A DNA stretch of 64,000 nucleotides. It comes from Phototrophicaceae bacterium. Lineage in GTDB: Bacteria; Chloroflexota; Anaerolineae; Aggregatilineales; Phototrophicaceae. Below, piece after piece: positions 7,432 to 52,730 of this stretch (its first letter is position 1; each line of letters starts with the position of its first letter). Below the pieces are notes generated by a model, which searched no databases, had not been told where the DNA came from, and saw nothing but the letters and a program-made list of their open reading frames with translations. Location of the stretch: positions 10,904 to 74,903 of the forward strand of contig JBMOEO010000004.1 in assembly GCA_049318945.1 (NCBI GenBank), read 5' to 3'. The position numbers and the translations under genes were made by a program.

Positions 7432-7836
7432 ATGCAAATTCTTATGACTGATGCAAAACTCGCAGGGGAACAATTCCTGCAAGAAAACGCCAAGCAACCC
7501 GATGTGGTTGTTACTGCCAGCGGGCTACAATATTCCGTCATCAAGCAAGCGGACGGGCGCAAACCAACCGCCAATGACACCGTAGAAGTGATGTATCACG
7601 GAACATTCATCAACAACAAGGTATTCGATAGCACCTACACCCGCGGCGAAAGCATCAGCTTTCCGCTCAAGGGGGTCATTGCTGGTTGGACGGAAGGCTT
7701 ACAGTTGATGAGCATAGGGGCAATCTACAAGTTTTACATCCCCTATCACTTGGCGTATGGTGAACGTGGCTACCCTGGAGCCATCCCCGGCTACTCCACT
7801 TTGATCTTTGAAGTGGAACTCATTGCGATTCAATAG
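7432..7836 (+). CDS. FKBP-type peptidyl-prolyl cis-trans isomerase
   Basis: 134-aa ORF: GLQYSVIKQADG...VEVMYHGTFINNKVFDS...FPLKGVIAGWTEGLQLM...LIFEVELIAI is a canonical FKBP domain. Confidence 0.9.
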   Translation: MQILMTDAKLAGEQFLQENAKQPDVVVTASGLQYSVIKQADGRKPTANDTVEVMYHGTFINNKVFDSTYTRGESISFPLKGVIAGWTEGLQLMSIGAIYKFYIPYHLAYGERGYPGAIPGYSTLIFEVELIAIQ

Positions 7837-9046
7837 CTTGTTGTAGGACGGCTTCGAGTTGGTCTGCTGTCACATCCCGATGAAATTCAGTACGTGCCAA
7901 TTGGCGAGCATTGAGACGAGCCACCTGTAAGCGATCCACATCGCTTAAGAAGCGTGCCAGTTGGTGTGCCCCCAAGGCAGGGTTGGTGTCTGCAATGCGG
8001 ATGCCAACCTGATGCTTTTCTAGGAGTTGCGCCTGCCACCCTCCATAGTTAATGGCAATTGGACGACCTGCTGCCAGTGCATCAAAGAATTTGTTGGCGG
8101 AGTTATGCCACATCTCTTGAATGGGCAAGAAGAGTGAAGTAGCGATGGTGGTTGCTGAAAGCACCGCAGGCATATCCTCTTTTGCCACCGACGACATCAC
8201 GGTTAGGTTGACGTTCAACACCCCACGTTGACGGGCATAGTCCTCGATCTTTTGTTTATGCGCCCCAAAACCCACCAACAAGAAGTGTACGGTTGGGTCA
8301 AGGTGACGCATCTCCAGCGCGACCTCCACCAAATACTCCACCCGATTCATATAGCCAAATGAGCCGGCATAGGTGATGAGCGGTTGGCTTGGGGTTAGCC
8401 CCAGTCGTTGGCGAAACACCAGCCCTTGTTCAACAGGCACATCAAATAAATCAAGGTCACAACTGTTGGGAATCACCGTGACTTTGTGCGCGGCAACCCC
8501 CCGCCGAAGCACCCCCTCCTTCATCCCCGGCGACAACGCCACCACATGCGCCGCCCCATGATAGGCGATACGCTCTAAACGGCGTGCCAAGCGGATGAGC
8601 AACGGATGCCGAATTGCGCCAATGGCAATGGGGAGATCAGGCCACAAATCGCGCACCTCAAACACCATCGGAATCCGCCGCATCATCTTAGCAATCAGGG
8701 CAGGGATCGCTATGGTGAGCGGTCCACTGCTGGCATAAATGACATCCGCCTTGTGGCGCATTGCCACGCTTGCCATCAACCACCCTGCCACCACAAACGC
8801 CCACATACGGCGCGGATAGGACATGCTTTGCGAATATTGAACCGGCAAGATGATAACGGGCACCCCTTCCATCGTCAGGCGCGTCACCCGTTTGATACTT
8901 TTGTATGCGTCAGGCATTTCGCCGGGGGTGGTCAACACCGTGACATCGTGCCCCTTGTCAATCAAGCGACGTGCCAGTTCATACGTGCGCGTTTTGCCGT
9001 GCGCCTGTGGCGGAACGAAGTATTGATGCAAGTACAAAATACGCAC
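7820..9046 (-). CDS. Glycosyltransferase family 4 (GT-B, WcaI-like)
   Basis: 408-aa ORF with a GTG start. MRILYLHQYFVPP...GKTRTYELARRL N-terminus and a GT1/GT4-type C-terminal domain. Confidence 0.85.
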   Translation of the reverse strand: MRILYLHQYFVPPQAHGKTRTYELARRLIDKGHDVTVLTTPGEMPDAYKSIKRVTRLTMEGVPVIILPVQYSQSMSYPRRMWAFVVAGWLMASVAMRHKADVIYASSGPLTIAIPALIAKMMRRIPMVFEVRDLWPDLPIAIGAIRHPLLIRLARRLERIAYHGAAHVVALSPGMKEGVLRRGVAAHKVTVIPNSCDLDLFDVPVEQGLVFRQRLGLTPSQPLITYAGSFGYMNRVEYLVEVALEMRHLDPTVHFLLVGFGAHKQKIEDYARQRGVLNVNLTVMSSVAKEDMPAVLSATTIATSLFLPIQEMWHNSANKFFDALAAGRPIAINYGGWQAQLLEKHQVGIRIADTNPALGAHQLARFLSDVDRLQVARLNARQLARTEFHRDVTADQLEAVLQQAIESQ

Positions 9047-9127
9047 GATTCAATCCTCACTACTAACCCGACCCTATGTTATATTGCTTTTATTATCAGG
9101 GTAGCCAAGATTTTGCAAAGAGGGATC

Positions 9128-10216
9128 ATGTCAGAACGCAATCGGGTTTTACACGTTTTGCCCCATGTAGAATATGGGGGCGCGGCACAAATGGCAATCA
9201 ACCTCATCACCGCGTTGGATGCACAACAATTTGAAGTCCACCTTGCTTGTCTATATGACCGCCCCGCCCATCCCATGTTATCCAACATTCCCACCCACAT
9301 CTTGCATAAATCGCGTGGGTTTGATGGGCGCGTCTATACAAAACTGTTGCACCTGATGCGCCAATTGCGCCCCCATGTCGTCCACACGCATGGTTATGTG
9401 GTGGGCTACGCCCAACCCATCGCGCTCATGCTTGGCATCCCCCAACGCATTCATACCCTCCACACGTTAGCAGAAAAAGAAGTGGGGATTGGGTGGCTCA
9501 ATCGCTGGCTATATGGTCGTTGGATCACCCCAGTTGCCATTTCAGAGGCAGTGAGCGCAAGCCTGCATCAACACCACCACCTGACCGATTTCCCCACCAT
9601 TGCCAACGGCATCCCCATGATGACTTATGCTCACCCTAGCTTGCCACGCGCCCAATGGCGAGAACAACACGGTTATGAGGTGGATGATGTTCTCATTGCA
9701 TGTGTGGCAAAATTCCGCCCCGTCAAAAATCATGCTGTGTTGGTGCGTGCCTTTGCTCAGGCACAACTCCCCCCACACGTGAAGTTGCTGCTAGTGGGAG
9801 ATGGCGAAAGCGAGGTTATCGAATCCGTGCGACAAGACATTGCCACGTTCAACCTACAAGACCAAATCCATCTGCTCGGTTTACGTGGAGACATTCCAAA
9901 CCTGCTGGGTGCTAGTGACGCACTCATCCTGACTTCGGACTATGAGGGCAACCCGTTGTGCATCATGGAAGCGATGTGCGCTGGGTTGCCCGTGATTGCC
10001 ACGCGCGTGGGGGGCATCCCTGAATTGGTGGAGGAAGGGGCTAGTGGTATCTTAACCCGCCCCAACCATGCCGATGAACTGGCGCACGCCCTACGCACGC
10101 TCACTGCTTCCCCTACCTTGCGCCAAACCTACGGGCAACGCGGACAGGAGATTGCCCGCACGCGCTTTGATGCCGCAGTGATGGCACGCCAGTATGAAGC
10201 ACTCTATCGGGCGTAG
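9128..10216 (+). CDS. Glycosyltransferase family 4
   Basis: Trimmed from the 8606..10216 track ORF to the ATG at 9128 (MSERNRVLHVLPHVEYGGAAQMAINL). The upstream part is antisense to the neighbouring GT4 gene. C-terminal SDYEGNPLCIMEAMCAGLPVIATRVGGIPELV is the GT4 EX7E region. Confidence 0.85.
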   Translation: MSERNRVLHVLPHVEYGGAAQMAINLITALDAQQFEVHLACLYDRPAHPMLSNIPTHILHKSRGFDGRVYTKLLHLMRQLRPHVVHTHGYVVGYAQPIALMLGIPQRIHTLHTLAEKEVGIGWLNRWLYGRWITPVAISEAVSASLHQHHHLTDFPTIANGIPMMTYAHPSLPRAQWREQHGYEVDDVLIACVAKFRPVKNHAVLVRAFAQAQLPPHVKLLLVGDGESEVIESVRQDIATFNLQDQIHLLGLRGDIPNLLGASDALILTSDYEGNPLCIMEAMCAGLPVIATRVGGIPELVEEGASGILTRPNHADELAHALRTLTASPTLRQTYGQRGQEIARTRFDAAVMARQYEALYRA

Positions 10217-11055: not shown

Positions 11056-11499
11056 ATGTCAACATCAAGCTACACCCTACACCTCATTCTGCTGGAGTGT
11101 CACCAACAACAAGAACATGACGGGGATGAGCCGTACCTCAAGGTGAACGGAAACATCTGCTTTGAGTGGCAGAAAATGGGCAGACGCTTCAGTAGTCAAC
11201 TCACCTCTATCCAGCATACCGATGCCTTTGACTTTCGCACAGGAAAGGTGCGCACGTTGCACGGTTGGGAAACAAGCGGAAGTTATATAGCAGAGGATTT
11301 CATCTTCCCCAACCTGAGCGGTGAAACAGCTATTGAACTGTGGGAATCTGACGAGGGGGAATGGTTTCGCGGTGGGGATGATTTCTTAGGCGAAGTGCTG
11401 GTGAACGCCAGCCAGATCAGTCACGTGGAACATGAGTACCTATTTGACATGCACAGTGCCCTCTACCGTCTGGTCTATCGCCTCTCCGCTAGTGAGTGA
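11056..11499 (+). CDS. Hypothetical small protein, C2-like / beta-sandwich pattern
   Basis: 147-aa ORF: DGDEPYLKVNG...ELWESDEGEWFRGGDDFLGEVLV resembles acidic-loop C2-type sandwiches. It sits 49 nt upstream of the ATPase gene on the same strand. Confidence 0.5.
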   Translation: MSTSSYTLHLILLECHQQQEHDGDEPYLKVNGNICFEWQKMGRRFSSQLTSIQHTDAFDFRTGKVRTLHGWETSGSYIAEDFIFPNLSGETAIELWESDEGEWFRGGDDFLGEVLVNASQISHVEHEYLFDMHSALYRLVYRLSASE

Positions 11500-11548: not shown

Positions 11549-12658
11549 ATGCAATTAAGCCACCTTAAGATACAAAACTTCAGGCAAATTTCATCCCATG
11601 AGTTTTCATTATCAGATGATTTGGAACGGATCAACAAATTAACCTTGATCGTTGGACCCAACGGAAGTGGAAAGTCTTCCATCTTGGATGCAATCTGGTT
11701 TGGGTTACATAAAGCAATTGGATATGACTTGTTGCGTTCGGGCTTTCGAGATGAACCTAGCCAGCTAGTGCATACGGGGCAGAACTTCGCTCAGGTTGAC
11801 TATGATATTGAAGTGACTTCTGAAGAGCTTGAGCGCATTCAGGGTTGGAAACGCAAACTTATTGATTTGAAAGAGATGAAGTATTCCCGCGACCACAAAG
11901 AAACGTATGGGCATGTCACATGGCAATATCCCCCACAACCCAACTCTAAGGAATATGGGTATAGCTATGCGAATGGTTATGATTGGAATCTTCTTCAAGG
12001 AAAAAATTATGCACGTCGCTTGCAAAAACTAAGCGCACAAAGATTACCCGATCTACATCTAGCAGGTGGGGTTTACCTCTTTGAACAAGAACGCCACATT
12101 GTGGATGAACCTGCAACACGACATAGCATAGATGAAGAAACATCAAGCGAACCTGCACCTACTCGCTTATTGAAGAAACTGGTGGAGCTAGGCATACGGT
12201 CTTCTATGGGCAGGATGCTAGAAAGCGAGGATTGGTACAAGCAAATCCAACGCGGTTACAACGCCATTTGTAGCCCACACGAAATGGGAAGTGTCTTTGC
12301 TATTGCTGCCGATGGAGAATATGACATCGAGTTCACCGCCGACAATGGGGTGTTATACGGCTTTTATGGGCTAAGCAGTGGTGAACGCGCCGTCCTGAAT
12401 TTCTTGGTGCAGTATTATGCCAAGCGCATGTTTAATTCTATCGTCCTCATTGATGAGCTAGAAATACACTTGCACCCCATTTGGCAACGTCGCCTGCTTC
12501 GCTACTTCATGAACCTAGACGATGGCAACCAGTTGATTGTCACCACCCACTCCCCCACTCTTGCAAGCATGGTGCCCGATGAGCAGATCATCGTCTTAGG
12601 AGAAATTGATAGCCCACAAGCAACTCCTGCTTGGCAAAGAGTGGATGAGGCAGACTAG
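11549..12658 (+). CDS. ABC-type (AAA_15/AAA_21-like) ATPase, AriA-like
   Basis: 369 aa. Walker A is GPNGSGKS (res 36-43), signature-like LSSGER, Walker B IVLIDELEIHLHP, and TTHSP H-loop. AT-richer than the flanks. Confidence 0.8.
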   Translation: MQLSHLKIQNFRQISSHEFSLSDDLERINKLTLIVGPNGSGKSSILDAIWFGLHKAIGYDLLRSGFRDEPSQLVHTGQNFAQVDYDIEVTSEELERIQGWKRKLIDLKEMKYSRDHKETYGHVTWQYPPQPNSKEYGYSYANGYDWNLLQGKNYARRLQKLSAQRLPDLHLAGGVYLFEQERHIVDEPATRHSIDEETSSEPAPTRLLKKLVELGIRSSMGRMLESEDWYKQIQRGYNAICSPHEMGSVFAIAADGEYDIEFTADNGVLYGFYGLSSGERAVLNFLVQYYAKRMFNSIVLIDELEIHLHPIWQRRLLRYFMNLDDGNQLIVTTHSPTLASMVPDEQIIVLGEIDSPQATPAWQRVDEAD

Positions 12659-12660
12659 GA

Positions 12661-13560
12661 ATGTCCATTAAAACCTTGCTTCCATCTTTAGGCGGAAATC
12701 AGCGCATCATACTATGTGAAGGCAAATTCGATTTTAATTTCATCGACAGCATCCTCAGCCTTAGAACAAACCGCATCGACATTTATCCTGCCCATGCGGT
12801 GAAAAGTTTAGCCCCCGTGCGTGCATTTCTGGAACAAGGCATTATCATTCGGGATCGTGATTTTAAGTTTACCGTTGAACAAGCACAAGACAGCTTTACA
12901 ACGACAGAGCATGAAACCATCTGGAAACGCTATGACATCGAGGGATACTTGCTGTATGCGGATTGGATTCAGCAAGCATTTGAGACGATTCAGTCAACTC
13001 GCCCAGGTCGCAAGTTATCTGTTCCAAGCGTTGAACAGATCGAGGCATTCATTATCGCCAAGAGCCGAGAACAGATTCTTCACTATGCTGGGAATAGGAC
13101 TGTAAAAGACTTGCATCCCAGTTTTTCGATGCTACACGAAGCCACGCAACTTAAGGTATCCGATCCAACTCCAACGGATGTAACCGCCTGTGTAGATGAT
13201 TTCACTCGGCAGATAGATAACTTGCGCATCCAAGCTGGTGAGCTAGACACACTTCCCGAATTGCAACCCGAAAACATCGCCATTCGCTTACAAGATTATC
13301 TACAACGTTATGATGAATTTGCCCAGAACATGGATACCATTCGGATTCATTTTTCTGGCAAAAAATTACTTGAAGCGGTCTGGGCAGAATGGTTACAGCC
13401 TCTAAGAATTAAAGATTTTGGCAAGGATGATTTATCAAAAGAACTCATCCCCATTGCCAAAGGCTACGCTACACACTTGGCGTTGCTTCGTGATGATGAG
13501 CGGTTGGGAGATTTTGCGTTGCTTGGTGAGAAGTCGCTTGCGGATGGGACAGCTTTATAA
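12661..13560 (+). CDS. DUF4435 / TOPRIM-like protein, AriB-like
   Basis: 299 aa. ILCEGKFD (E20) and IIIRDRDF (D65, D67) fit the TOPRIM E...DxD arrangement seen in DUF4435. The start is 2 nt after the ATPase stop. Confidence 0.7.
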   Translation: MSIKTLLPSLGGNQRIILCEGKFDFNFIDSILSLRTNRIDIYPAHAVKSLAPVRAFLEQGIIIRDRDFKFTVEQAQDSFTTTEHETIWKRYDIEGYLLYADWIQQAFETIQSTRPGRKLSVPSVEQIEAFIIAKSREQILHYAGNRTVKDLHPSFSMLHEATQLKVSDPTPTDVTACVDDFTRQIDNLRIQAGELDTLPELQPENIAIRLQDYLQRYDEFAQNMDTIRIHFSGKKLLEAVWAEWLQPLRIKDFGKDDLSKELIPIAKGYATHLALLRDDERLGDFALLGEKSLADGTAL

Positions 13561-13581
13561 ATATCTTGTAAATATTTATAT

Positions 13582-13626
13582 ACACCGTTTAATTATATTG
13601 ACACCGTTTATCTAATGCCGTATGAT
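13582..13626 (+). promoter_or_regulatory. Candidate promoter TTGACA-17 nt-TATGAT (13598-13626) with a direct repeat ACACCGTTTA x2 (13582-13591, 13601-13610)
   Basis: Read directly from the sequence. The second repeat overlaps the -35 hexamer. The -10 hexamer lies downstream of the ATG at 13615. Confidence 0.4.
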
Positions 13627-20797: not shown

Positions 20798-22471
20798 CTA
20801 ACGTAACCGCTTAGATTGCTCCTCGGTGATCTTCATGATCGTATCCGAAGCATAATATGACCCATAACCATTGCCATAGTATCCCTCTTGGGTGAGGTCA
20901 GCGCGATTCAAGACCACCCCTAACACGCCTTGCCCCACGTTTTGGAAACGCTCTTTCGCCCGTAAGGCGGCGTTGCGTCGCGTCTTTTTGGCATCCACCA
21001 CCAATAAAGCGCGAGCATTGGTTGAACCTGCCAAGACTAGGCTATCCGATACAATCAAACATGGGGGAGTATCAAAGATCACCACATCCACATGAGGAGA
21101 TTCCTGAAATGCTTTGACCAAGCGACGCATCAAAACCGACCCCAAAATCTCATTGGGATTTTGCGGGACAAACCCACTTGTAATCACGCGCAAGCCACTT
21201 ACCCCTGTACGCTGGGCAGCACGGTTCAAATCATCCGCTTGGCTCACATCGAGATGTTGCGGTTGATAACCCTCTTTTAAGGGTTGGGCATGAAGCAACG
21301 AGGTTAGCCCTATTTCATTGGGCAAATTAAAAATCCGATGCACCTTCGGACGACGCAAGTCCGCATCAATTAACCATACCCGCTTGCCAGCTTGTGCTAG
21401 GGAGAGTGCCAAGTTCACAGAAGTCAGGCTTTTGCCTTCGCCGGGTGCAGTGCTGGTTAACAAGAAAATCTTTTGCCCGTTCTCTTCCATCGCAAAAAGT
21501 AAGTTAGCGCGGAGCGTATTGTACTCCTCCACCACGCGAGAGAAGGCGGGTTGATTGATGATGAGGCGCGGTTGATAGCCTTCACGGCGATTCTCTTCAA
21601 TGATGGAAATCACCCCGAACACAGACAGTTGAAGTGTTTGAGTGACTTCATCAGCAGTACGGTAGTGATCGTTCAAGTATTCAAAGACAATCGCAATGAC
21701 CGCCCCCCCTGCCGCAGAAACCACCGCCCCAATCAAGATGGCAATCGCGTTATTGCCGCTGGGGCGTTCGGGCACACGCGCCGTTTCCACCACTTCCAAC
21801 GAATTGGTACGCGCCTGTAAGCTGGTGACAATTTGGGTGAGGTCAACAATATTGGAAGAGAGTTGATTGATCTGATCGCGTAGCGCGTTGCGCGTGTTGT
21901 TCAATTCAGTCAAGGTGGCAAGATCAGACGTGGTTTCAATCGTGCCACTCACAGCATCCAGTTGGGTGCGAAGCCCCTCGCGCTCAGTTTCCAGATCGCT
22001 AATCTGTGTGCCAATGAACTCAATTTGTTGTTGATCGGTCTCATCAAGATTGGGGCTAATCTGTAACAAACGGTTCGCTAATTCGTTGGCGATATTGGCA
22101 ACCAAGATAGGATCATCAAAGGTTACTTCCAGCCTCAATAATGAAGTTGAGGGCAAGATGGTGGCGCGGATTTTGCCCTGTAACCGCGCAGGATTAAGCG
22201 ATAAGCCCAGTGCGTTCACCGTGTCTTGAGCGATGTCATACGACTTCACCAGTTGGGCATAGGTTTGTGCCAGCTCTTCTGCCGCGCGAATATCATTTAC
22301 TTCTGGATCAAGATTATTAACGCTGTTGCCAATCAGGATGGTGGTGGAAGCGCGATACACTGGTGGACGGGTGGCACGGTAAACAAAGGTCGCACTGGTG
22401 CCCACCAATACCATCACCACAATCAACCAAAGCCACCGCCGCAATACTCTTACATAATCCCCAAATTCCAT
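20798..22471 (-). CDS. Polysaccharide co-polymerase / tyrosine autokinase (Wzc-like, PCP-2)
   Basis: 557 aa. Wzz-type N-terminus with two TM helices and a coiled-coil periplasmic region. Walker A is TSTAPGEGKS, Walker A' is IDADLRRP, Walker B is VVIFDTPP. C-terminal Tyr cluster EGYYGNGYGSYYASD. Confidence 0.9.
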   Translation of the reverse strand: MEFGDYVRVLRRWLWLIVVMVLVGTSATFVYRATRPPVYRASTTILIGNSVNNLDPEVNDIRAAEELAQTYAQLVKSYDIAQDTVNALGLSLNPARLQGKIRATILPSTSLLRLEVTFDDPILVANIANELANRLLQISPNLDETDQQQIEFIGTQISDLETEREGLRTQLDAVSGTIETTSDLATLTELNNTRNALRDQINQLSSNIVDLTQIVTSLQARTNSLEVVETARVPERPSGNNAIAILIGAVVSAAGGAVIAIVFEYLNDHYRTADEVTQTLQLSVFGVISIIEENRREGYQPRLIINQPAFSRVVEEYNTLRANLLFAMEENGQKIFLLTSTAPGEGKSLTSVNLALSLAQAGKRVWLIDADLRRPKVHRIFNLPNEIGLTSLLHAQPLKEGYQPQHLDVSQADDLNRAAQRTGVSGLRVITSGFVPQNPNEILGSVLMRRLVKAFQESPHVDVVIFDTPPCLIVSDSLVLAGSTNARALLVVDAKKTRRNAALRAKERFQNVGQGVLGVVLNRADLTQEGYYGNGYGSYYASDTIMKITEEQSKRLR

Positions 22472-22793: not shown

Positions 22794-23690
22794 ATGGAAT
22801 CAAAATTGGTATCCATCAGTCAAAATATTAACGATGAACAGCGAGACTATGATTATTTGTTTGATCTATGTGCGAAGTTTCGTTCCGTAAAAAATATGGA
22901 TATTGTCTTTGATTTTACAGGTTGTCGATTCCTTCGTCAAAATGCTGTTGCAATTCTTGGCGCACTGATACGGTTGCTACGGCAACAGGGAAATACAGTG
23001 GACTTCCGACGTGAAACTATTGAACAAAGTGTTCGTATGAATCTGTTGCAAAATGGATTCTTGTATGAGTTGGGATTAGGTGGCTCTCCCTGGAATGGCA
23101 ACTCAATCCCATATCGTGAAGATACGACTATGGCTGAAGATGATTACGCCGATTACTTGTCTGAAAAATGGTTGGGTAAGGGCTGGGTCAATGTCAGTTC
23201 AAACCTGCGCGATCACATTGTCATGCGTGTGATAGAGGCATATATCAACGTTTTCGATCATGCACAATCGCCCACTGGGGTAATGACTTGTGGACAGTAT
23301 TTTCCAAAAATGGGCGAACTCAGAATAACGATGGTAGATATGGGAGTAGGTATCCCACATCCCGTTCGGGAATATTTGAAACAGCCAAGTATGACAGCTG
23401 AGGATGCCTTGAGATGGGCATTTGCACCGACAAATACAACCAAAGACCAGAATAATTTTGCACGTGGCAATGGGTTGAAACTCCTCAAATCCTTCATGGA
23501 GGAGAATCATGGCAAGCTAGAGATTTACAGCGAAAACGGTTATGCTTGTATTGATGATAATGAAAACCGATTCGAAAATCGTTCTTCTAGCTTTCAAGGA
23601 ACCATTGTTCAAATCACACTGATTTGCGATACCGCTCACTACGCCCTACCAGAAGAGAATGATTATGACAGTGACGAATGGTTCTTTTAG
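22794..23690 (+). CDS. STAS-like N-terminal domain fused to a GHKL (HATPase_c) SpoIIAB/RsbW-like ATPase/kinase domain
   Basis: 298 aa. The N-terminus MDIVFDFTGCRFLRQNAVAILGALIRLLRQQG...MNLLQNGF is STAS-like. N-box is E148AYINVFDHA, G1 is D182MGVG, G2 is G225NGL, followed by GTIVQITL. No DHp/His phosphoacceptor domain. AT-rich. Confidence 0.7.
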   Translation: MESKLVSISQNINDEQRDYDYLFDLCAKFRSVKNMDIVFDFTGCRFLRQNAVAILGALIRLLRQQGNTVDFRRETIEQSVRMNLLQNGFLYELGLGGSPWNGNSIPYREDTTMAEDDYADYLSEKWLGKGWVNVSSNLRDHIVMRVIEAYINVFDHAQSPTGVMTCGQYFPKMGELRITMVDMGVGIPHPVREYLKQPSMTAEDALRWAFAPTNTTKDQNNFARGNGLKLLKSFMEENHGKLEIYSENGYACIDDNENRFENRSSSFQGTIVQITLICDTAHYALPEENDYDSDEWFF

Positions 23691-24062
23691 ATGATTGGAA
23701 ACCTCATGAACTACAGCATAAAAGAAAACATTGGTGCCAACGGCATCACGTTACAAGATGGACAAAAAGTATATGATGAGATTCATCCACAATTGAAGCA
23801 TGGGCAAGAAGTGATACTTGATTTTGCAGATGTGCGAATCGTTGCTTCTCCTTTTCTAAATGCTGCTGTTGGACAGTTACTTAGAGATATTTCGGCTGAG
23901 GACTTGAATCGCTATTTGAAGTTTACCAATCTACCTCCTGTCAAACGCCCGATTCTCAAGCGTGTCATTGACAATGCAAAAGAATATTATGGTAATGAAC
24001 AGATCCGCCATGCTGTTGATGCAACGATAAGTGAGGAGGCGGGTAGCAACGATGGCGATTAA
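23691..24062 (+). CDS. STAS-like protein of the DUF4325 type
   Basis: 123 aa. QEVILDFADVRIVASPFLNAAVGQLL matches the DUF4325/STAS core as I recall it. The ATG immediately follows the TAG of the upstream gene. Confidence 0.65.
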   Translation: MIGNLMNYSIKENIGANGITLQDGQKVYDEIHPQLKHGQEVILDFADVRIVASPFLNAAVGQLLRDISAEDLNRYLKFTNLPPVKRPILKRVIDNAKEYYGNEQIRHAVDATISEEAGSNDGD

Positions 24063-24669
24063 AGTCAACGCCAATGTTATCGACATCCGAATTGATTCAC
24101 CACGATCTAACGACATGTTTTTTGTGGATACGAATGTCTGGTACTGGGTGGGTTATACAAACGCAAGTATCGGTGATGAATCTAATCAGAGTGTTAACTA
24201 CCCAAAGTATGTTGGTGATGCGCTTTCTGCAGGTAGTTCATTGTATAGATGTACGCTTTCATTTGCCGAGCTGGCTCACAGTATTGAACGAAGTGAACGT
24301 ACCATCTTCGAGAAATCAACAGGTAAACAGATCAAGCCAAAGATATTCCGTCATGATTATCCAAACGAACGCGCAAACATTCTTACAGAAATTGAAAATA
24401 CATGGGTGCTATCTGATGGTATGACGGATGGAAATACTATCGAGGTTGATGTATCCGCTTCTATGGTGAGTGATACCCTAACGCGCCTGAAATCCGAAGG
24501 GCTTGATGGATATGATGCCTTCATGGTTGAAGCCATTTTAGCACGGGGGATCAAACAAGTCATAACCGATGATGCTGATTTCGGGCAAATCTCAGGGATT
24601 ACTGTGTTTACAGCAAATGACTTTTTAATCAGACAAGCGACAAAACAAGGTAAAATTAGGAGGCGATAA
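24052..24669 (+). CDS. PIN domain nuclease
   Basis: ATG at 24052, with GAGGAGG 12 nt upstream inside the preceding gene and an 11-nt overlap. FFVDTNVW (D26), ELAHSIE, YDAFMVEAIL and QVITDDADF give the four acidic PIN positions. 205 aa. Confidence 0.75.
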   Translation: MAIKVNANVIDIRIDSPRSNDMFFVDTNVWYWVGYTNASIGDESNQSVNYPKYVGDALSAGSSLYRCTLSFAELAHSIERSERTIFEKSTGKQIKPKIFRHDYPNERANILTEIENTWVLSDGMTDGNTIEVDVSASMVSDTLTRLKSEGLDGYDAFMVEAILARGIKQVITDDADFGQISGITVFTANDFLIRQATKQGKIRRR

Positions 24670-27328: not shown

Positions 27329-28720
27329 CTATTCAAAATGCTCGAATGCCTGCTCAATGAAGTAACGGGCAAACGCCTCAGCACGCACCTGATGCACTTG
27401 CCCTTGTCGGTCAAGGTAGGCAAATTGTTCCGCTTTGGCAACATAACCAACTTCTAATAAATTAGGTGAGGGTATGGTGGACACGTCCGCAAGACGTTCG
27501 TAATAACCACGTTCGGTTTCTAAGGCTATGTGTAGGGTTGCTTTGGAGATGCCTGTGTGGGTTTCCATTTCGGGGCTAGGGAAGCCGAAGAAAAATAAAT
27601 AGCGAACAGCATTTTCTGACCGAGCATCTGTGGTTCGATAAAGGCTAAATCGGAAATACCATGTGCGTTTAGACGGACGATGAGCACACAATTCTTGATA
27701 CTTCTCATACTCTAAGCCATCAAATTCCCTGAAGCCAATCCGCTTAGATGATCCTTGTTGGGTGGCTAGGTTGGTATATTCTTGTGCCAATTGTTTCAAA
27801 TAGCCCTTCAATAAACCCATCGCCTTCTCAAAGATTTCATACTCACCGCGCAGTTGTTGATCGTCTTGATACAATAGCTTATGTAAGAATTGCTCGCTTT
27901 CTAGTTGATTCTTGGTGGCGTATTCATAAACCTCAAAGCTCTCTAAAGCAGACTCTAAAACTAAACGAATGAAAGAGGATAAGTCCCCTGCTTGGGTCTC
28001 TTCTAAGGCATCATAGTAACGATGCCGATCATCTTTGGTCAGGATGACCAGTGGGTAGCCACGGCGTATCAAAATCAGATTCATCAATAAGCGTGCTGTA
28101 CGCCCATTTCCATCTACAAACGGATGAATATACACAAACCATACATGCGCAATACAAGCCAAAATCAACGGGTCATCTTGTGCGGTGGAATCTTCATGAG
28201 AGATACTTTCCAGCCACTTCCCAAAATCATCCATCTCTTCATTAATCCGTGCTGGGTCTGGTGGGGTAAACTGAGAGCCAGAGATGCGTACTTGTATGGT
28301 ACGAAACCGTCCCGCGTTTCGATCATCAACACCACGTAGAACAACACCATGCAGTTCTTTAATATCACGTATTGAGATGCCCTCTTTGCTTTTAACCAAC
28401 ACCTCAAAGAAATCAAGCGCGTCGGAAAGATTGCGTGCCTCCATACTATCCTTGAGGGGCTTACCCGTCAAAGTGAGTCCTTGCTCAATCACCATTTTGG
28501 TCTCGCCAATGGTGAGCGTATTCCCTTCAATGGCATTAGAGTTATAGATTTGTTTAAGCCGAAAATATGCTTGTAGATGCGCCAGAGATTCGGGGGACAA
28601 TGTACCGATTAACGTTCGCATTGCACCGATCCGTTCTCTTAAGTCGGTCAATGGCTTGCTCAAATTATGGTCATACTCATAAGGTGTTTGTGAGACTGGT
28701 TGATAACGATTTTTATTCAT
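27329..28720 (-). CDS. Fic family protein (class II, internal inhibitory helix) with an uncharacterised ~190-aa C-terminal extension
   Basis: 463 aa. Fic motif HPFVDGNGRTARLLMN is intact. N-terminal SNAIEGN fits the (S/T)xxxE(G/N) inhibitory motif. Confidence 0.9.
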   Translation of the reverse strand: MNKNRYQPVSQTPYEYDHNLSKPLTDLRERIGAMRTLIGTLSPESLAHLQAYFRLKQIYNSNAIEGNTLTIGETKMVIEQGLTLTGKPLKDSMEARNLSDALDFFEVLVKSKEGISIRDIKELHGVVLRGVDDRNAGRFRTIQVRISGSQFTPPDPARINEEMDDFGKWLESISHEDSTAQDDPLILACIAHVWFVYIHPFVDGNGRTARLLMNLILIRRGYPLVILTKDDRHRYYDALEETQAGDLSSFIRLVLESALESFEVYEYATKNQLESEQFLHKLLYQDDQQLRGEYEIFEKAMGLLKGYLKQLAQEYTNLATQQGSSKRIGFREFDGLEYEKYQELCAHRPSKRTWYFRFSLYRTTDARSENAVRYLFFFGFPSPEMETHTGISKATLHIALETERGYYERLADVSTIPSPNLLEVGYVAKAEQFAYLDRQGQVHQVRAEAFARYFIEQAFEHFE

Positions 28721-47091: not shown

Positions 47092-48861
47092 CTAGCGTGC
47101 GCCACGTTGTTGAAAGACTGCTAAAAAGGTGCGTACCAAGATTTGTATATCCAAAGAAACGCACATCTTATTCACGTACATGCGGTCAAAATCCACCCAG
47201 ATATTGAAGTCGGTTGTACCGCGTGCCGCCACTTGCCACAAACCCGTGATGCCCGGACGCACGCCGAGCCGTTCGGTATGGAATAGTTGATAACTATCCA
47301 AGCCCCAGCTGGTTGGGCGCGGTCCCACGATGCTCATATCCCCACGCAACACATTCAACAATTGGGGTAGCTCATCCAAGCTGGTCTTGCGCAAGATTGA
47401 GCCGATGCGCGTGATGCGTGGATCGCGCTTAAGTTTGAGCGGTTCTGCTAATTTGCCATCGGCGTTCAACTTCGCCAATCCTTGCGCCGCCAATTCCTTG
47501 AGCTTCTCTTCCGCATTGGGCACCATCGTGCGGAACTTAACCATCTTGAACCGCTCTCCCCCGCGCCCGGTACGATATTGCATGAAGAAAATGGGACCTC
47601 GGTCTTCTAAGTAGATCAACAAAGCAACGACCAACCCAATCGGCAAGATGAACGGCATCACCATCAAAACCACAAAGGTATCAAAAATCCGCTTCAAGAA
47701 GCTGTACAAGCTACGCGAAGTTTCAGTTTGATAGGGCAAGATATTCAACCAAGAATCTGGGCGGAGCAACTGGTCATATTGCGAGTCTGCCCCTAACCAA
47801 AAGTCAGAAGCGTTGGGAGGTTGAACATCAGGCCACGGTTGAAAGATTTGTTGCAAGCCTGCCGACACCCCACTATTCACTTGCTTTCTTTCTATGGTGG
47901 TTAAACTCGCTTTGATGGGAGTAAGCTGGCTGAGGGGTAACGCACCCCCGCTTGAAGCCGACAACATTGGAGAGGAGGTAACTTCGCCCAGTTTGCCTCC
48001 CCCGTTGTTGGTATCGGAATGACTGGAGTTTTCATCATCAAGATGGCGCAAACGGCTTTGTGCCTTTTCAATGAGGTCATTGTAGATGAAGCCATCTTCG
48101 GGGAACATCGCGCTTCCCACCATAACCTTGATCGCCAAGCGTTGAGAGATTTCCTTGTACAAGCGTGCGGTTGCACGTTCTAGGCGTTCGGCAGTGGTTT
48201 CGGGCATAATGATGACAATATCATTTTGATAGAGCATCACCCCATCAATCTTATACACCACCAATTCAATCACCTGTGCCAAGCGCACTTGCAAGTAGTG
48301 CTTCTGCAATTCTTGCTCTAGGTCAAATTTATAAGTGCCCAAGCGTGAGCGAAGCAATTCTTCCGTACTCACATACACCACCCCCACATTGCGCTCAAAG
48401 CGACGGGCACGTGCCAGCTCTGCTTGTAGCGTTTCTAGCCCGCGTGACATGGGCATAATGCGGAACTCATCTGGGGGGATTAAAACATTTTCCACCGTGT
48501 TTTCAAATGAGAGCAATGCTTGGCTAAGCAAACGGAAGATCACAATGGTGAGATAGATAATCACTACCTCCAACGTGAAGATTGCCAGATTGGTTTGTCC
48601 TAGCGGAATCCCAAAGAAGGTTTTCAAGAGGGCGTAGATTCCAACCATTGGCACGAAGATGTATTCAGTACGACGAGAAACATCCGGCATTAAAATAGCA
48701 ATCAACGCCCCCACGAAAGCGGCAATATAGACGTAGCTATCTAGGTTGATATTGATCTCGTCAATGCCAAGCCCAAGCAGTTCAATGTCGGGGCGTTCAA
48801 GGTTGAACACGAGCGTCAACCAAACCACTGACAGAATAATTAAAGTACGAAATCGAGTCAT
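47092..48861 (-). CDS. Polyprenyl glycosylphosphotransferase with N-terminal TM region and a degenerate GGDEF-like domain
   Basis: 589 aa. 4-5 N-terminal helices. ELARARRFERNVGVVYV...MLYQNDIVIIMPETT...GSAMFPEDG aligns to the GGDEF fold without the GGDEF motif. C-terminal FKRIFD...GPRPT...PGITGLWQV sugar transferase domain. Confidence 0.8.
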   Translation of the reverse strand: MTRFRTLIILSVVWLTLVFNLERPDIELLGLGIDEININLDSYVYIAAFVGALIAILMPDVSRRTEYIFVPMVGIYALLKTFFGIPLGQTNLAIFTLEVVIIYLTIVIFRLLSQALLSFENTVENVLIPPDEFRIMPMSRGLETLQAELARARRFERNVGVVYVSTEELLRSRLGTYKFDLEQELQKHYLQVRLAQVIELVVYKIDGVMLYQNDIVIIMPETTAERLERATARLYKEISQRLAIKVMVGSAMFPEDGFIYNDLIEKAQSRLRHLDDENSSHSDTNNGGGKLGEVTSSPMLSASSGGALPLSQLTPIKASLTTIERKQVNSGVSAGLQQIFQPWPDVQPPNASDFWLGADSQYDQLLRPDSWLNILPYQTETSRSLYSFLKRIFDTFVVLMVMPFILPIGLVVALLIYLEDRGPIFFMQYRTGRGGERFKMVKFRTMVPNAEEKLKELAAQGLAKLNADGKLAEPLKLKRDPRITRIGSILRKTSLDELPQLLNVLRGDMSIVGPRPTSWGLDSYQLFHTERLGVRPGITGLWQVAARGTTDFNIWVDFDRMYVNKMCVSLDIQILVRTFLAVFQQRGAR

Positions 48862-49200
48862 TCGCTTGCCCTGTTACTTTCTCTAAAGATGTTGTAACAA
48901 TCCAGCAGGTTATCAGATTGATTGTGACTATAACACAAGATGAAACCGTGCTTCTTTAGTTTTGCGTCATTTTTATCAGATCACTGAAAAGACGAACTTA
49001 ATACAAACATAGACCAACCGAAAGGCTAACCGCATCAAAATAACAGGTTAGTTTTCAGTTTGCCTCTAACCTCATTATAACCCCTTGCTGGCGGGAAACT
49101 AACATTTTGCAACGGCAAAGTTCTAACGATCTTGCAACATTTAGGAAAGGATTTTATAACGTGGCAGGGATTGACTTTGAAGTTATAGCCATGTTTTTGG

Positions 49201-49246
49201 GGGTATGAAAAGCGTTTACCTACGTTTATTAAACGCTTTCATACCC
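49201..49246. other. Long hairpin (17-bp stem with one bulged A, 11-nt loop)
   Basis: GGGTATGAAAAGCGTTTA...TAAACGCTTTCATACCC, 19 nt beyond the stop of the minus-strand methyltransferase gene. No U-tract. Confidence 0.5.
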
Positions 49247-49264
49247 ATAAACAAACGGTTTGTC

Positions 49265-50005
49265 TTAAGTTAGTGCTTCTTTGGGAGAGGGTTTTTGCCC
49301 AACGAAGATGTGCCGTTCATAGCTGTCTAGCACATAGTGCGCTTCAAAACCCACCTCCCCCATCACCCTCAACCAGTCTGACAAGGGGAATAATCCGAGC
49401 GTGTGTTGGTCGGCAATCACCTGAGTGGGTTGCCCCGCTTCGTGGGTGACAATAATGTAATCCGTAAGATAGATGCTATCGCTTTCATCAGGATCATACG
49501 CCCACTCTAAATAGCGTAACGCTTGCCCATCCTCGCCATCCTCCCCACCATGCTCGGTGCTGGGTTCAAATGACTCACGCACATGATCGGGCGCGATCAC
49601 CAATATTCCGCCTGCTCGGCAGTGTACCCAAGCCGTTTGGATTGCCAAGCGCAAATCCTCTAACGTGGTCATGTAATCAATCGCATCATGGATGAACACA
49701 GCATCATAGGTTTGGTTCAAGCGTATCTGGCGCATATCCCCTTGATGATGTTCACAGTCGGGGTTAAGGGTTTGGCTCATCTCCAGCATTTCGGCGAACA
49801 AATCGACCAGCGTCACCTTTGCAAAAGCAGACTTCATGTAGAAGGCATTATTGCCTCCCCCACTCCCCAGTTCCAAAAGACTGCGGTCAGGATGTTGCGT
49901 CCCATGTTGTGCGAATAGTTCCAAAAAGAAAGTTGCTTCCTCTTCATAATCAGCAGGGGAAGATAACAAATACCACCAACGCGCTAATTCATTGTAAAGT
50001 TTCAT
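49265..50005 (-). CDS. Class I SAM-dependent methyltransferase
   Basis: 246 aa. Motif I is LLELGSGGGNNA; DAVFIHDAIDY follows as post-I/II. Confidence 0.8.
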   Translation of the reverse strand: MKLYNELARWWYLLSSPADYEEEATFFLELFAQHGTQHPDRSLLELGSGGGNNAFYMKSAFAKVTLVDLFAEMLEMSQTLNPDCEHHQGDMRQIRLNQTYDAVFIHDAIDYMTTLEDLRLAIQTAWVHCRAGGILVIAPDHVRESFEPSTEHGGEDGEDGQALRYLEWAYDPDESDSIYLTDYIIVTHEAGQPTQVIADQHTLGLFPLSDWLRVMGEVGFEAHYVLDSYERHIFVGQKPSPKEALT

Positions 50006-50121
50006 TTTCAGATGACCTATATTATTGGCAAAATTATTCTGCAGTAGAATTTTATCGTATCCAAGTCATAACAAAATACATTGTATTCCAGTGTAAGAGA
50101 TTATTGTCAAAAGGTATAAAG

Positions 50122-50138
50122 ATCATCATAATGATGAT
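50122..50138. promoter_or_regulatory. 17-bp palindrome ATCATCAT-A-ATGATGAT
   Basis: Perfect 8-bp inverted repeat, 50 nt upstream of the ATG at 50188 and just downstream of a TATAAA hexamer (50115-50120). Confidence 0.35.
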
Positions 50139-50187
50139 AGCGTATCATTTACAGAATTCATCACAACTGACATGAATGGGAAGTCCA

Positions 50188-50652
50188 ATGCCAGCGAGAT
50201 TGTCATTCTATCTCGATAAACAGGTTCTATTTGTGGATGCTTATGGGCAGTTAACCTATGACCAGATTGAGGAGACGGCAGCTTGCGGATATTGGTATAT
50301 CAGCCAAGCTGACCGCCCCATTAACTTGATTGCCAGCCTACAACATGTTTCTTCTTTTGATTACCTTAGTTCAGAGTTGTTGAGTTTGAAGGTACCTAAA
50401 CGCCCCGCCCCTAACTCTGGATGGGTCATCTTTCTAAGTATCAACCCCATTTACAACGCAGCCGCGTCACTTTTACATGGATTCGTTCCTAATATCAAGC
50501 TCATGACTTTAGGAAGCATCAGCCAAGCGACGGATTTTTTACGCCAGCAGGGCTATCCACACACCTTCACGATGGAAGAATTGCGATCAACCATCCACTA
50601 CGAAACGGGTACATGGTCAGAGGAAGTCCGTCAGGTTTATAATTCTTTATAA
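50188..50652 (+). CDS. STAS/SpoIIAA-like small protein (paralog D)
   Basis: ATG at 50188 (MPARLSFYL) chosen by analogy with the MPYK/MPIQ starts of the other paralogs; the track ORF starts at 50176. Shares PNSGW and the C-terminal layout with paralogs A-C. Confidence 0.6.
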   Translation: MPARLSFYLDKQVLFVDAYGQLTYDQIEETAACGYWYISQADRPINLIASLQHVSSFDYLSSELLSLKVPKRPAPNSGWVIFLSINPIYNAAASLLHGFVPNIKLMTLGSISQATDFLRQQGYPHTFTMEELRSTIHYETGTWSEEVRQVYNSL

Positions 50653-50866
50653 ACCATCTTTGTTTATGAGTAACTGACTAAGCAGAATTGAGTAACCTGT
50701 AAGAGAACCATGCGAACTGCTTGCTAAGTATTTACTTCGGGCGTATGATCCCTACAAAATTGTCGGTTGGTAAGAAGCATTCTTAAATTAGGAATGTAAC
50801 TGCCCCACCGAACACGCCTGCCCTTGCGCGTGAACTTGATGGATGTGTGCTTAGAGGAGAATCGTG

Positions 50867-51832
50867 ATGCAAAATCGTGAAATCGTGGTTGACAATCTGG
50901 TCAAGCGATATGGTGATTTCACCGCTGTAAATGGTGTTTCGTTCCGTGTTGAATCAGGAGAAGTATATGGGTTTCTTGGTCCAAACGGCGCGGGCAAATC
51001 TACCACTGTTTCCATGTTGACCACCTTAAGCCTGCCCACAAGTGGTCATGCCACCGTTGGGGGATATGATGTGCGCTCGCACGCTTACGACGTTCGCCGT
51101 GTAGCAGGGGTCGCCCTGCAAGAAATCGGCTTAGACCCGCTCATGAAGTCGCTAGAACTGTTGTCCCTGCAGGGGCGCGTATTCGGCATGAATTACAAAG
51201 ACTCCATGCGTCGTGCACATGAGCTGTTAGAGCTAGTGAATCTAACGGAGTTCACCGCTCGCCCTGTTGGCAAATACAGCGGAGGGATGCGTCGGCGGTT
51301 AGACCTTGCGCTGGCTCTGGTTCATCAGCCAGATGTATTGTTCTTGGACGAACCCACCACAGGGCTAGACCCTGCCAGCCGTCGTGATATTTGGAAAGAA
51401 GTTGCACGGCTCAATAGCGAGTTAGGCATCACCATCTTCTTGACTACGCAATATCTGGAAGAAGCAGACCAACTTGCCAACCGTATCGCCATCATCAATC
51501 AAGGCGTGATTGCGGTAGAGGGCAAGCCAGCCGAGCTAAAGGCGAACATGGGCGGGGATGCCATTAACCTTGCCTTTGAAGATGTCAGCTTGGTGGATAA
51601 GGCGATCAGCGAAGTGCAAGACATGGTGACGCGCACCCAAATTGACCGCGACACCTTACGCCTATACTTGCCCAACGCCGCCGCGGCAGTACCTGCTGTG
51701 GTGACGCGCTTGCAAGCCGCCCACATTCAACCCATCTCACTCACCCTCACCCAACCCACCTTGGATGATGTGTTCTTACAAGTCACCGGACAACGCTTCG
51801 CTACAGAAGAAAAAGAAGAAAAAGTGGCATAG
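50867..51832 (+). CDS. ABC transporter ATP-binding protein (ABC-2 / DrrA-like exporter)
   Basis: ATG at 50867 with GAGGAG 7 nt upstream. Walker A GPNGAGKST, signature YSGGMRRRL, Walker B LFLDEPTTGLD. Confidence 0.9.
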   Translation: MQNREIVVDNLVKRYGDFTAVNGVSFRVESGEVYGFLGPNGAGKSTTVSMLTTLSLPTSGHATVGGYDVRSHAYDVRRVAGVALQEIGLDPLMKSLELLSLQGRVFGMNYKDSMRRAHELLELVNLTEFTARPVGKYSGGMRRRLDLALALVHQPDVLFLDEPTTGLDPASRRDIWKEVARLNSELGITIFLTTQYLEEADQLANRIAIINQGVIAVEGKPAELKANMGGDAINLAFEDVSLVDKAISEVQDMVTRTQIDRDTLRLYLPNAAAAVPAVVTRLQAAHIQPISLTLTQPTLDDVFLQVTGQRFATEEKEEKVA

Positions 51833-51853
51833 CCCACAGGAGTTGATAATCCC

Positions 51854-52684
51854 ATGACCGCAACCGTTATTCGCCCAACCCAATCCACCGCACGTTCCGC
51901 TAAAGCCTCGCACAAGATGCCTTTCTTGGTGCAGGTATGGATGATGTCCCGTCGTAGCCTTGTCACCATGTTTCGTGATCCCGCCGCCATCATCCCTGGC
52001 TTGATCTTAGGGGTATTCTTCTTGGTGATTTATGAGGCATCTTTAGGAGGAGCAGCACAATTCTTTTTACGCGGACAAAGCTATCTCGGCTTCATCCTCC
52101 CCTTATCCGTCATCAGCACCGCCCTAAGTGGTGCAGGCATAGCCGGTCAGGCAGTGATCCGCGATATTGATTCTGGCTACTTCGATAAGCTATTGCTGAC
52201 CCCCATCTCACGGGCGGCACTCTTGCTTGCTCCCATGATTGCCGCGGCGTTGGTGTTGGTCATGCAGTCCAGCGCAGTGGTATTGGTTGGCATCCTACTA
52301 GGATTAGAGCCTGCCACCGGCTGGCTAGGGGTATTGACCTTGCTAGGCTATGCGCTCTTGATTGGGGTTGCCCTCGCGGGTTTGATCGTTGGGATCGCGC
52401 TCCGCACCAACAGTGCCTCTGCCACCAGTGGAGCATCCTTCCTGTTCTTCCCACTCACCTTCTTGACGGCAACCTTCACCCCCAAAGAATTACTCACGGG
52501 CTGGCTAAAAGTAGCAGCACAGTGGAATCCTATCACCTACATCCTAGAGGCTTGTCGCTCATTGTTGAACATTGGTTGGGAGCCACAGGTATTGTTCACT
52601 GGCTTGTGGGTTTCGTTGGGGGTGTGTGTTGTCACCTTCGCGTTTGCCTCCCTCAGTTTACGGGCACGCACGCAACGCCGTTAG
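51854..52684 (+). CDS. ABC-2 type transporter permease
   Basis: 276 aa with 6 hydrophobic helices, immediately downstream of the ATPase. Confidence 0.8.
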   Translation: MTATVIRPTQSTARSAKASHKMPFLVQVWMMSRRSLVTMFRDPAAIIPGLILGVFFLVIYEASLGGAAQFFLRGQSYLGFILPLSVISTALSGAGIAGQAVIRDIDSGYFDKLLLTPISRAALLLAPMIAAALVLVMQSSAVVLVGILLGLEPATGWLGVLTLLGYALLIGVALAGLIVGIALRTNSASATSGASFLFFPLTFLTATFTPKELLTGWLKVAAQWNPITYILEACRSLLNIGWEPQVLFTGLWVSLGVCVVTFAFASLSLRARTQRR

Positions 52685-52730
52685 TTATTCTTGGGGAGCA
52701 CGTGACAGTATCACTTGCTCCCCTTATAAA

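Follow-up and report, generated by a model that had tools for sequence, protein, structure and literature searches.

What a short ABC-type ATPase gene, followed almost without interval by a gene for a TOPRIM-type protein, does for its host is the question raised by a locus in a Phototrophicaceae bacterium (Chloroflexota; Anaerolineae; Aggregatilineales). The window, meaning the whole stretch of DNA analysed, comprises 64,000 nucleotides (nt) of assembly GCA_049318945.1 (contig JBMOEO010000004.1, positions 10,904-74,903 of the forward strand), and the two genes lie on its plus strand at 11549..12658 and 12661..13560. The PARIS anti-phage system consists of AriA, an ABC ATPase of the AAA_15/21 families, and AriB, a TOPRIM nuclease with a DUF4435 domain, and a first-pass annotation of this DNA had read the pair as a module of the PARIS type. 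That reading is supported with caveats: the ATPase passes the Pfam thresholds, the family of the partner reaches DUF4435 and AriB, and the predicted fold of the partner matches AriB only among solved structures. The pair is probably an abortive-infection type immune module, with the ABC ATPase and the TOPRIM domain split onto two genes that are probably coupled (OLD class 4, PARIS-like), and it is a defence function that we infer. Since the locus agrees with PARIS in how its genes are arranged, in the family of its ATPase, in the AriB fold and in its catalytic residues, and departs from it in DUF4435 score and coiled-coil bundle, it is called here a PARIS-like variant rather than canonical PARIS.

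The first gene encodes an ABC-type AAA_15/AAA_21 ATPase of 369 amino acids (aa), with an ATG start and the stop codon TAG (12656-12658), which would be a short AriA-like sensor or sequestering subunit. The second, beginning with ATG 2 nt later as first annotated and as confirmed by the listing of open reading frames (ORFs), encodes a 299-aa AriB-like protein with an N-terminal TOPRIM domain and a helical C-terminal domain, a putative divergent DUF4435 protein. The junction between them (12644..12663, plus strand) contains GAGG, the stop TAG, the 2-nt gap and the ATG, with GAGG lying 12 nt before the partner ATG at 12661, a layout that suggests probable translational coupling of ATPase and partner.

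Residue conservation in the ATPase was counted across 46 homologues, and all of the motifs of both genes described here lie on the plus strand. In the Walker A motif or P-loop GPNGSGKS (11654..11677), G36, N38, G41 and K42 are invariant; in the Q-loop region LFEQER (12077..12094), Q180 is near-invariant and R182 invariant; and in the ABC signature LSSGER (12371..12388), G278 is invariant with S276, S277 and E279 near-invariant. The Walker B motif and D-loop VLIDELEIHLHP (12443..12478) carry invariant D302, E303, E305 and H309 and lie in the aligned region shared with AriA 365-442 and PtuA, while T333 and H334 are invariant in the H-loop TTHSP (12542..12556). All four motifs cited in the first-pass annotation (GPNGSGKS, LSSGER, VLIDELEIHLHP and TTHSP) stand at verified coordinates and are invariant or nearly so, a degree of conservation beyond chance that holds for the partner motifs as well. 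Because the Walker A, Q-loop, signature, Walker B/D-loop and H-loop are invariant or near-invariant, ATP binding and hydrolysis would be expected. About 30 homologues of the ATPase (367-393 aa) share 40-57% identity with it, and a further tier (350-380 aa) shares 25-32%. The tail of the ATPase, residues 355-369 (12611-12655), is predicted to be disordered (predicted local distance difference test, pLDDT, <50), yet bears a family-conserved P-x-W-Q, and might serve as a short peptide by which the partner docks or the ATPase self-assembles.

The assignment to the AAA_15/21 families is secure at the level of Pfam, with 97.7 bits to AAA_21 (1.8e-27; cut-off 27) and 91.4 bits to AAA_15 (1.2e-25; cut-off 32). 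A grouping with RecF or SbcC, which would count against the first-pass annotation, was not seen, the ATPase falling far under all of the housekeeping equivalog cut-offs, those for RecF, Rad50, SbcC and SMC included (recF 46 bits vs a cut-off of 172; Rad50 35 vs 700; sbcC 22 vs 478). Among defence profiles, PADLOC ranks PtuA models first (9e-33) and AriA next (3.5e-28), with end-to-end alignments also to AbiLi (1e-24), mad3 (2e-22) and NsnB, and the ATPase reaches 88 of the 500 bits that the NCBIfam PtuA model requires. In a search of PDB sequences, retron PtuA, Septu PtuA and AriA were near-equidistant from the ATPase (1.5e-12 to 2.2e-11), these matches covering the signature-to-H-loop part only.

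The partner is the more difficult protein to place. Its sequence alone gave no match in Pfam, NCBIfam, PHROGs or PDB sequences, and a word-indexed protein search with it returned the query only. An exhaustive HMMER scan recovered 41 representatives of the partner family among 1.84 billion proteins, indicating that the family is rare, and 37 members were scanned individually against Pfam and PADLOC. DUF4435 was matched by 14 of the 37 (best 5.3e-9), its gathering score of 27 bits being narrowly cleared by two members checked singly (P0149, 28.9; P0148, 28.1), and the PADLOC models AriB and AriAB were matched by 25 (best 5.8e-14) and 28 members, respectively. Ten members matched OLD-like_TOPRIM, and Old, GajA, HEC-01B, AbiLii and NsnC were each matched by 2-4 members, much more weakly than AriB. 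RloB (PF13707) was not among the 25 Pfam families listed, of 29 matched by the family. The window partner itself gave weak PADLOC matches to AriB (1.4e-3; residues 15-242 against profile positions 3-221 of 236) and AriAB (6.9e-4). In the profile searches proposed in the first-pass annotation, AAA_21, AAA_15 and PADLOC AriA were thus recovered with the ATPase, though with PtuA ahead of AriA, whereas DUF4435/TOPRIM was reached by homologues of the partner and not by the window protein, for which AriB remained weak.

Structure prediction places the partner with AriB. An AlphaFold2 model built from the 37-sequence alignment (pLDDT 90.7; predicted template modelling score 0.86) was compared by Foldseek with 350,542 PDB chains, and only two matches were obtained at E<=1e-3, both to AriB (8ux9_A, 5.3e-5; 8v46_D, 5.8e-5), full-length and with a probability of 1.00, the next hit having E=0.19. 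These two chains come from the two cryo-electron microscopy studies of PARIS, and the result favours the first-pass reading.

The active site predicted for the partner is also that of a TOPRIM nuclease. In the strand-1 motif IILCEGKFD (12706..12732), C19, E20 and D24 are present in 37 of 37 members and E20 ends the predicted strand 15-19; in the DxD motif IIIRDRDF (12841..12864), directly after the predicted strand 61-64, D65 and R66 are present in all 37 and D67 in 35; and in a third acidic cluster, DIEGYL (12934..12951), E94 is found in 36, Y96 in 37 and an acidic residue (D or E) at D92 in 36. The residues invariant across the family are C19, E20, D24, D65, R66, Y96 and G233. In the model, E20 closing strand 1 and D65-R66-D67 right behind strand 3 form the canonical TOPRIM layout, and the E...DxD arrangement with its E20/D65/D67 numbering had been correctly recognised at first pass. 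The published metal-binding set of AriB consists of E26, D30, D88, E90 and E122; the E-x3-D spacing is the same as that of E26/D30, and the D-x-D/E spacing the same as that of D88/E90. Mapped by order, spacing and fold, E20, D24, D65, D67 and E94 would be the counterpart of the AriB set, with E94 the likely equivalent of E122.

The two genes belong together across their family. In the 12 independent loci examined (L001, L002/L003, L004/L006, L005/L010, L007, L008, L009/L013, L012, L014, L015, L016/L017, and the window with L011) a partner homologue follows directly after an AAA_15/21 ATPase of 357-400 aa in 12/12 cases, and in all of the related loci the two genes are separate, either overlapping by 4-30 nt or lying 0-2 nt apart. 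The pairing persists to 20-25% partner identity (partner identities 20-39%), and the identities of ATPase and partner drop in parallel across loci (57/37, 47/26 and 30/25%); AriA and AriB have been published as co-diverging. The flanks are unrelated between lineages, comprising aldehyde:ferredoxin oxidoreductase and fructose-bisphosphatase genes, a flavin-dependent (FAD) oxidoreductase gene, ftsA and ftsZ, a gene for an extracytoplasmic function sigma factor, or genes for a resistance-nodulation-division pump and a pyridoxal-phosphate-dependent (PALP) enzyme. At L017 1263-5017 an Abi_C gene and small ORFs of Fic type are followed immediately downstream by a distantly related pair, with a 400-aa ATPase and a 338-aa partner, and in L015 (6015-7130) an IS605 OrfB/TnpB gene lies about 1 kb downstream of the pair, behind the PALP-enzyme gene. 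In L004 (4001-6033; the same locus as L006), from an Anaerolineaceae metagenome-assembled genome (MAG), the order is ftsQ-like POTRA, ftsA, the pair, ftsZ and nrdR, which puts the pair inside a cell-division cluster, where an accessory module would not usually be expected. Synteny of the pair is maintained across several MAGs of one Anaerolineae lineage.

To our knowledge, PARIS has been worked out mechanistically in only one system, from E. coli. PARIS is functionally and evolutionarily the closest system to the pair (OLD class 4; prototype from E. coli B185, PDB 8UX9 and 8V45-8V49), and the two are alike in having adjacent co-oriented genes with the ATPase first, an AAA_15/AAA_21 ABC ATPase with complete catalytic motifs, a partner of about 300 aa with an N-terminal TOPRIM and a helical C-terminal domain for which AriB is the sole significant structural match, an acidic set in the same order and spacing (E-x3-D ... 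D-x-D/E ... E), and two proteins that co-diverge across loci. They differ in the size of the ATPase, 369 aa here and 464 aa in AriA, the deficit of about 94 aa lying wholly between the Walker A motif and the signature: the Walker A lysine is K42 here and K39 in AriA, while residues 274-352 align to AriA 365-442, which leaves AriA with about 94 extra residues in between. In AriA, trigger recognition is predicted to fall to IS1 (residues 122-180), whereas IS2 (242-289) and the coiled coil (CC) form a four-helix bundle that dimerises, building the hexameric propeller, and in the structure of Deep et al. Ocr wedges in at the AriA coiled-coil (IS2/CC) interface. In the AlphaFold2 model of the window ATPase (pLDDT 87.5), the segment from Q180 to S276 contains just helices 207-219 and 229-240 and a hairpin, with no coiled-coil bundle. 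The suspicion raised at first pass that the short ATPase lacks part of the coiled coil or trigger-sensing insert is therefore borne out by the deficit between Walker A and signature and by the presence of two short helices in place of the four-helix bundle. All close relatives are equally short (357-380 aa), so this is the normal state of the family and not a truncation. What is retained includes the head-to-head ATPase interface, at which AriB docks in PARIS.

A number of results weigh against equating the pair with PARIS. The window partner does not match DUF4435 even at E<=0.1 and fails every curated threshold. As judged by sequence profiles, the family straddles the edge of DUF4435 with the window partner falling outside, and since homologues reach DUF4435 and the window protein does not, its homology to DUF4435 is transitive. 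The published detection rule for PARIS demands AAA_15 at >=32 or AAA_21 at >=27 bits together with DUF4435 at >=27 bits; with its partner under the DUF4435 cut-off, the window locus would not be called by it, while some relatives pass it and may have entered censuses as PARIS. A literature search for the subtype names PARIS_I and PARIS_II gave unrelated papers only. The PADLOC models for AriA and AriB probably do not count as evidence independent of Pfam, being near-identical in length to Pfam AAA_15, AAA_21 and DUF4435. Profiles of the partner family (A1, A2) searched against PDB sequences did not reach E. coli AriB; use of the AriAB-like fusion P0110 as a bridge to E. coli AriB had no success, and a profile search of the word-indexed database with A2 yielded extra family members and no canonical DUF4435 bridge. 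The global TM-score between the partner model and AriB is low (~0.36), suggesting that the domains of the partner may be arranged or oriented otherwise than in AriB. With the bundle absent, the ATPase probably lacks what AriA uses to assemble the 6:3 propeller and to bind Ocr at the CC interface, so that the PARIS mechanism cannot apply here unaltered. The ATPase is, moreover, structurally nearest to PtuA rather than AriA: the top Foldseek matches of its model are PtuA chains (6e-16, TMq ~0.6), and AriA was not found among the best 50. PARIS is frequently carried by satellites and prophages, whereas the named relatives of the pair are all from Chloroflexota MAGs (Anaerolineae, Anaerolineaceae and Phototrophicaceae), no family member was found on viral contigs (IMG/VR) and no significant fold match among viral structure models (BFVD). 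Finally, the MAG synteny in one Anaerolineae lineage and the ftsA/ftsZ position in L004 make a role other than defence conceivable.

Several of these results bear on the rival explanation that survives best, although it is unlikely, namely that the pair is a separate ABC-ATPase plus TOPRIM system, in effect a further class of the OLD family. Its effector would nick or cut DNA, like P2 Old, Gabija GajA and class 1 OLD, and not cleave tRNA, and its ATPase would resemble a PtuA-type scaffold more than AriA. PtuA, of Septu and of the type I-A retrons (Ec78/Eco7/Ec83), belongs to the same AAA_15/21 family and provides the best profile (PADLOC/NCBIfam) and structural matches of the ATPase, which speaks for such a system, as do the missing AriA-specific bundle and the low TM-score to AriB (0.36). 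PtuA is, however, larger (450-550 aa) with a larger helical insert, and its partner PtuB is an HNH protein, while the partner here is of the TOPRIM/DUF4435 type and neither it nor its family gave any HNH match, hence the pair is not Septu. The matches of 10/37 partner members to OLD-like_TOPRIM and of a few to Old or GajA also point towards a wider OLD relationship, and P2 Old (class 1) and GajA (class 2) share the logic of an ABC ATPase with a TOPRIM nuclease. In these the domains are fused in one chain of ~580-630 aa, whereas here they are split by the stop codon at 12656-12658 and lie on separate polypeptides as in PARIS; the helical C-terminal domain of the partner is AriB-like, unlike that of single-chain OLD nucleases. 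AbiL (AbiLi/AbiLii) and the MAD3-MAD4 proteins of MADS come closer in design, with a split short AAA_21-type ATPase of similar length and a TOPRIM-like partner, but AbiLii was matched by just 4/37 members (best E 0.014) and mad4 by none of the family, and there are no methyltransferase or other MADS genes nearby. Set against a separate class, AriB and DUF4435 are by far the best profile matches of the partner family and AriB is its sole significant structural match, which favours the PARIS-like immune module.

Evidence of a different kind comes from L011, which is another assembly of essentially the same locus and differs from the window at 75 positions in 6,900 nt. The partner and a 147-aa ORF upstream of the pair are identical between the two, and 60 of the 75 differences fall within ATPase codons 88-172 (255 nt; window 11810-12064, L011 2150-2404), with 29 non-synonymous and 15 synonymous codon changes. 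Within this patch synonymous divergence (dS) is 0.79, non-synonymous divergence (dN) 0.18 and dN/dS 0.23, while dS in the rest of the gene is ~0 to 0.02. The contrast between high dS inside and almost none outside indicates that the patch is a segment of a diverged allele imported by recombination. A diversity-generating retroelement and hypervariability by point mutation were rejected as its source on the same values (dS 0.79, dN/dS 0.23). Codons 88-172 form an insert in lobe I (11810..12064, plus strand) and are the least conserved region of the ATPase across the family, located at the linear position of the AriA pore residues and IS1. This strain-variable, recombined cassette is a candidate for the trigger-sensing surface, and its confinement to a surface insert fits an exchange of sensor specificity.

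From these observations a mechanism may be proposed for the PARIS-like module. The ATPase would form an ATP-dependent head-to-head ABC dimer on which the AriB-like TOPRIM nuclease is kept inactive at the nucleotide-binding face. A phage-derived cue acting on the ATPase would release the nuclease, which would then dimerise through its helical C-terminal domain and cut nucleic acid by two-metal catalysis (E20, D24, D65, D67 and E94). By analogy with AriB the likeliest substrate would be host transfer RNA, with translation and phage growth coming to a stop and the infection being aborted, although the module might target a different RNA or DNA substrate. The complex would be built on the ATPase dimer and not on a 6:3 propeller, and the trigger would be sensed elsewhere, more likely by the lobe-I insert (88-172). 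The full version of this proposal, a 'mini-PARIS' in which a coiled-coil-less ABC dimer gates an AriB-like nuclease and senses infection through a lobe-I cassette (88-172) swapped by recombination, is put forward tentatively, as something rather less likely than the immune role itself; if true, its sensing and assembly architecture would be unlike both of the published PARIS structures.

A plain toxin-antitoxin or addiction module, with the TOPRIM protein as toxin and the ATPase as antitoxin, which would stabilise the carrier DNA with no dedicated phage sensing, is improbable. PARIS does act as a type II toxin-antitoxin pair in overexpression tests, and the compact coupled genes and the varied chromosomal contexts without other defence genes would suit such a module. 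A passive antitoxin would have no need of ATP-hydrolysis motifs that are all invariant, however, and the recombined surface cassette suggests selection on recognition; in the window, moreover, the pair is not flanked by mobile-element genes.

The surroundings of the pair in the window are more modest in what they reveal. Upstream is a gene of the metallo-β-lactamase (MBL) fold (Lactamase_B) on the minus strand and downstream a TetR gene (TetR_N), so that the first-pass annotation had named both neighbours correctly; it had left unmentioned the 147-aa ORF (11056-11499, plus strand) that intervenes between the MBL gene and the ATPase and ends 49 nt before the latter. This ORF is predicted by the gene caller and is 100% conserved in L011, and it gave no match in Pfam, PADLOC, NCBIfam, PHROGs or PDB. 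As a third component it was rejected, being matchless in these databases and absent beside all other pairs, and it probably does not belong to the module. Where the TetR gene begins, a near-consensus sigma-70-like promoter (TTGACA-17-TATGAT, 11/12) is overlapped by a direct repeat, TATATACACCGTTTA / TATTGACACCGTTTA (13577-13626). This is likely to be the operator/promoter for TetR, whose annotated start (13615) may lie too far upstream.

The pair had been described as richer in AT than its surroundings, which is true but modest: its GC content is 45.3% against 49.8% for the window, a shift of ~1.5 standard deviations (3.1% among windows of the same size), and 8.7% of equal-size windows reach a GC content as low, three other regions being lower. 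No flanking direct or inverted repeats of note were found around the pair, and no integrase or transposase adjoins it in the window; a location within a recognisable island or prophage was accordingly rejected. A tblastn search of plasmids with P0149 gave no match. Unrelated flanks, a rare and patchy family and lowered GC fit an accessory, horizontally moving module. A housekeeping role, whether in the maintenance of nucleic acids or in the cell cycle, is very unlikely. In its favour, ATPase-nucleases of the OLD family need not serve defence, as the archaeal member Cran1 shows, and the pair between ftsA and ftsZ in L004, the synteny in several Anaerolineae MAGs and the absence from the viral collections searched (IMG/VR and BFVD) could also be cited; against it stand a family so rare and patchy (41 in 1.84 billion), flanks that differ in most lineages, fast divergence of the partner (20-39% identity), GC under the window average and a mosaic allele between near-identical strains.

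Elsewhere in the window, the lowest GC (41.5% around 22.7 kb) is reached in a stretch (22794-24669 and 27329-28720) that encodes two proteins, one of 298 aa matching HATPase_c below threshold and one of 212 aa with a PIN domain, with a 463-aa Fic/DOC protein encoded nearby, and these HATPase_c-like, PIN and Fic/DOC genes may also be of toxin or defence type. A large part of the window has the appearance of a region for polysaccharide biosynthesis, with GT4 glycosyltransferases, a Wzz/ParA-like chain-length regulator, a Bac_transf sugar transferase, an ABC-2 permease and several methyltransferases encoded at 7820-10216, 20798-22471 and 47092-53468. No Rfam family was matched at gathering score across the whole 64-kb window.

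The practical importance of the PARIS-like pair is modest, since the kind of system is already known, and its interest lies in what it may say about mechanism and detection. In E. coli PARIS the coiled-coil bundle of AriA has two tasks, assembling the hexamer and binding the phage trigger, and a family that lacks the bundle while keeping an AriB-like effector and the ATPase head would reveal which parts of the PARIS mechanism are essential. The absent bundle points to a different trigger-sensing surface, one that is mappable through the two natural alleles of the cassette. With its effector under the DUF4435 cut-off the locus also falls into a blind spot of rule-based detection tools, and similar loci may go uncounted. 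For understanding how ATPases of this kind sense infection, useful leads come from the minimal ATPase, the blind spot in detection and the cassette that can be swapped.

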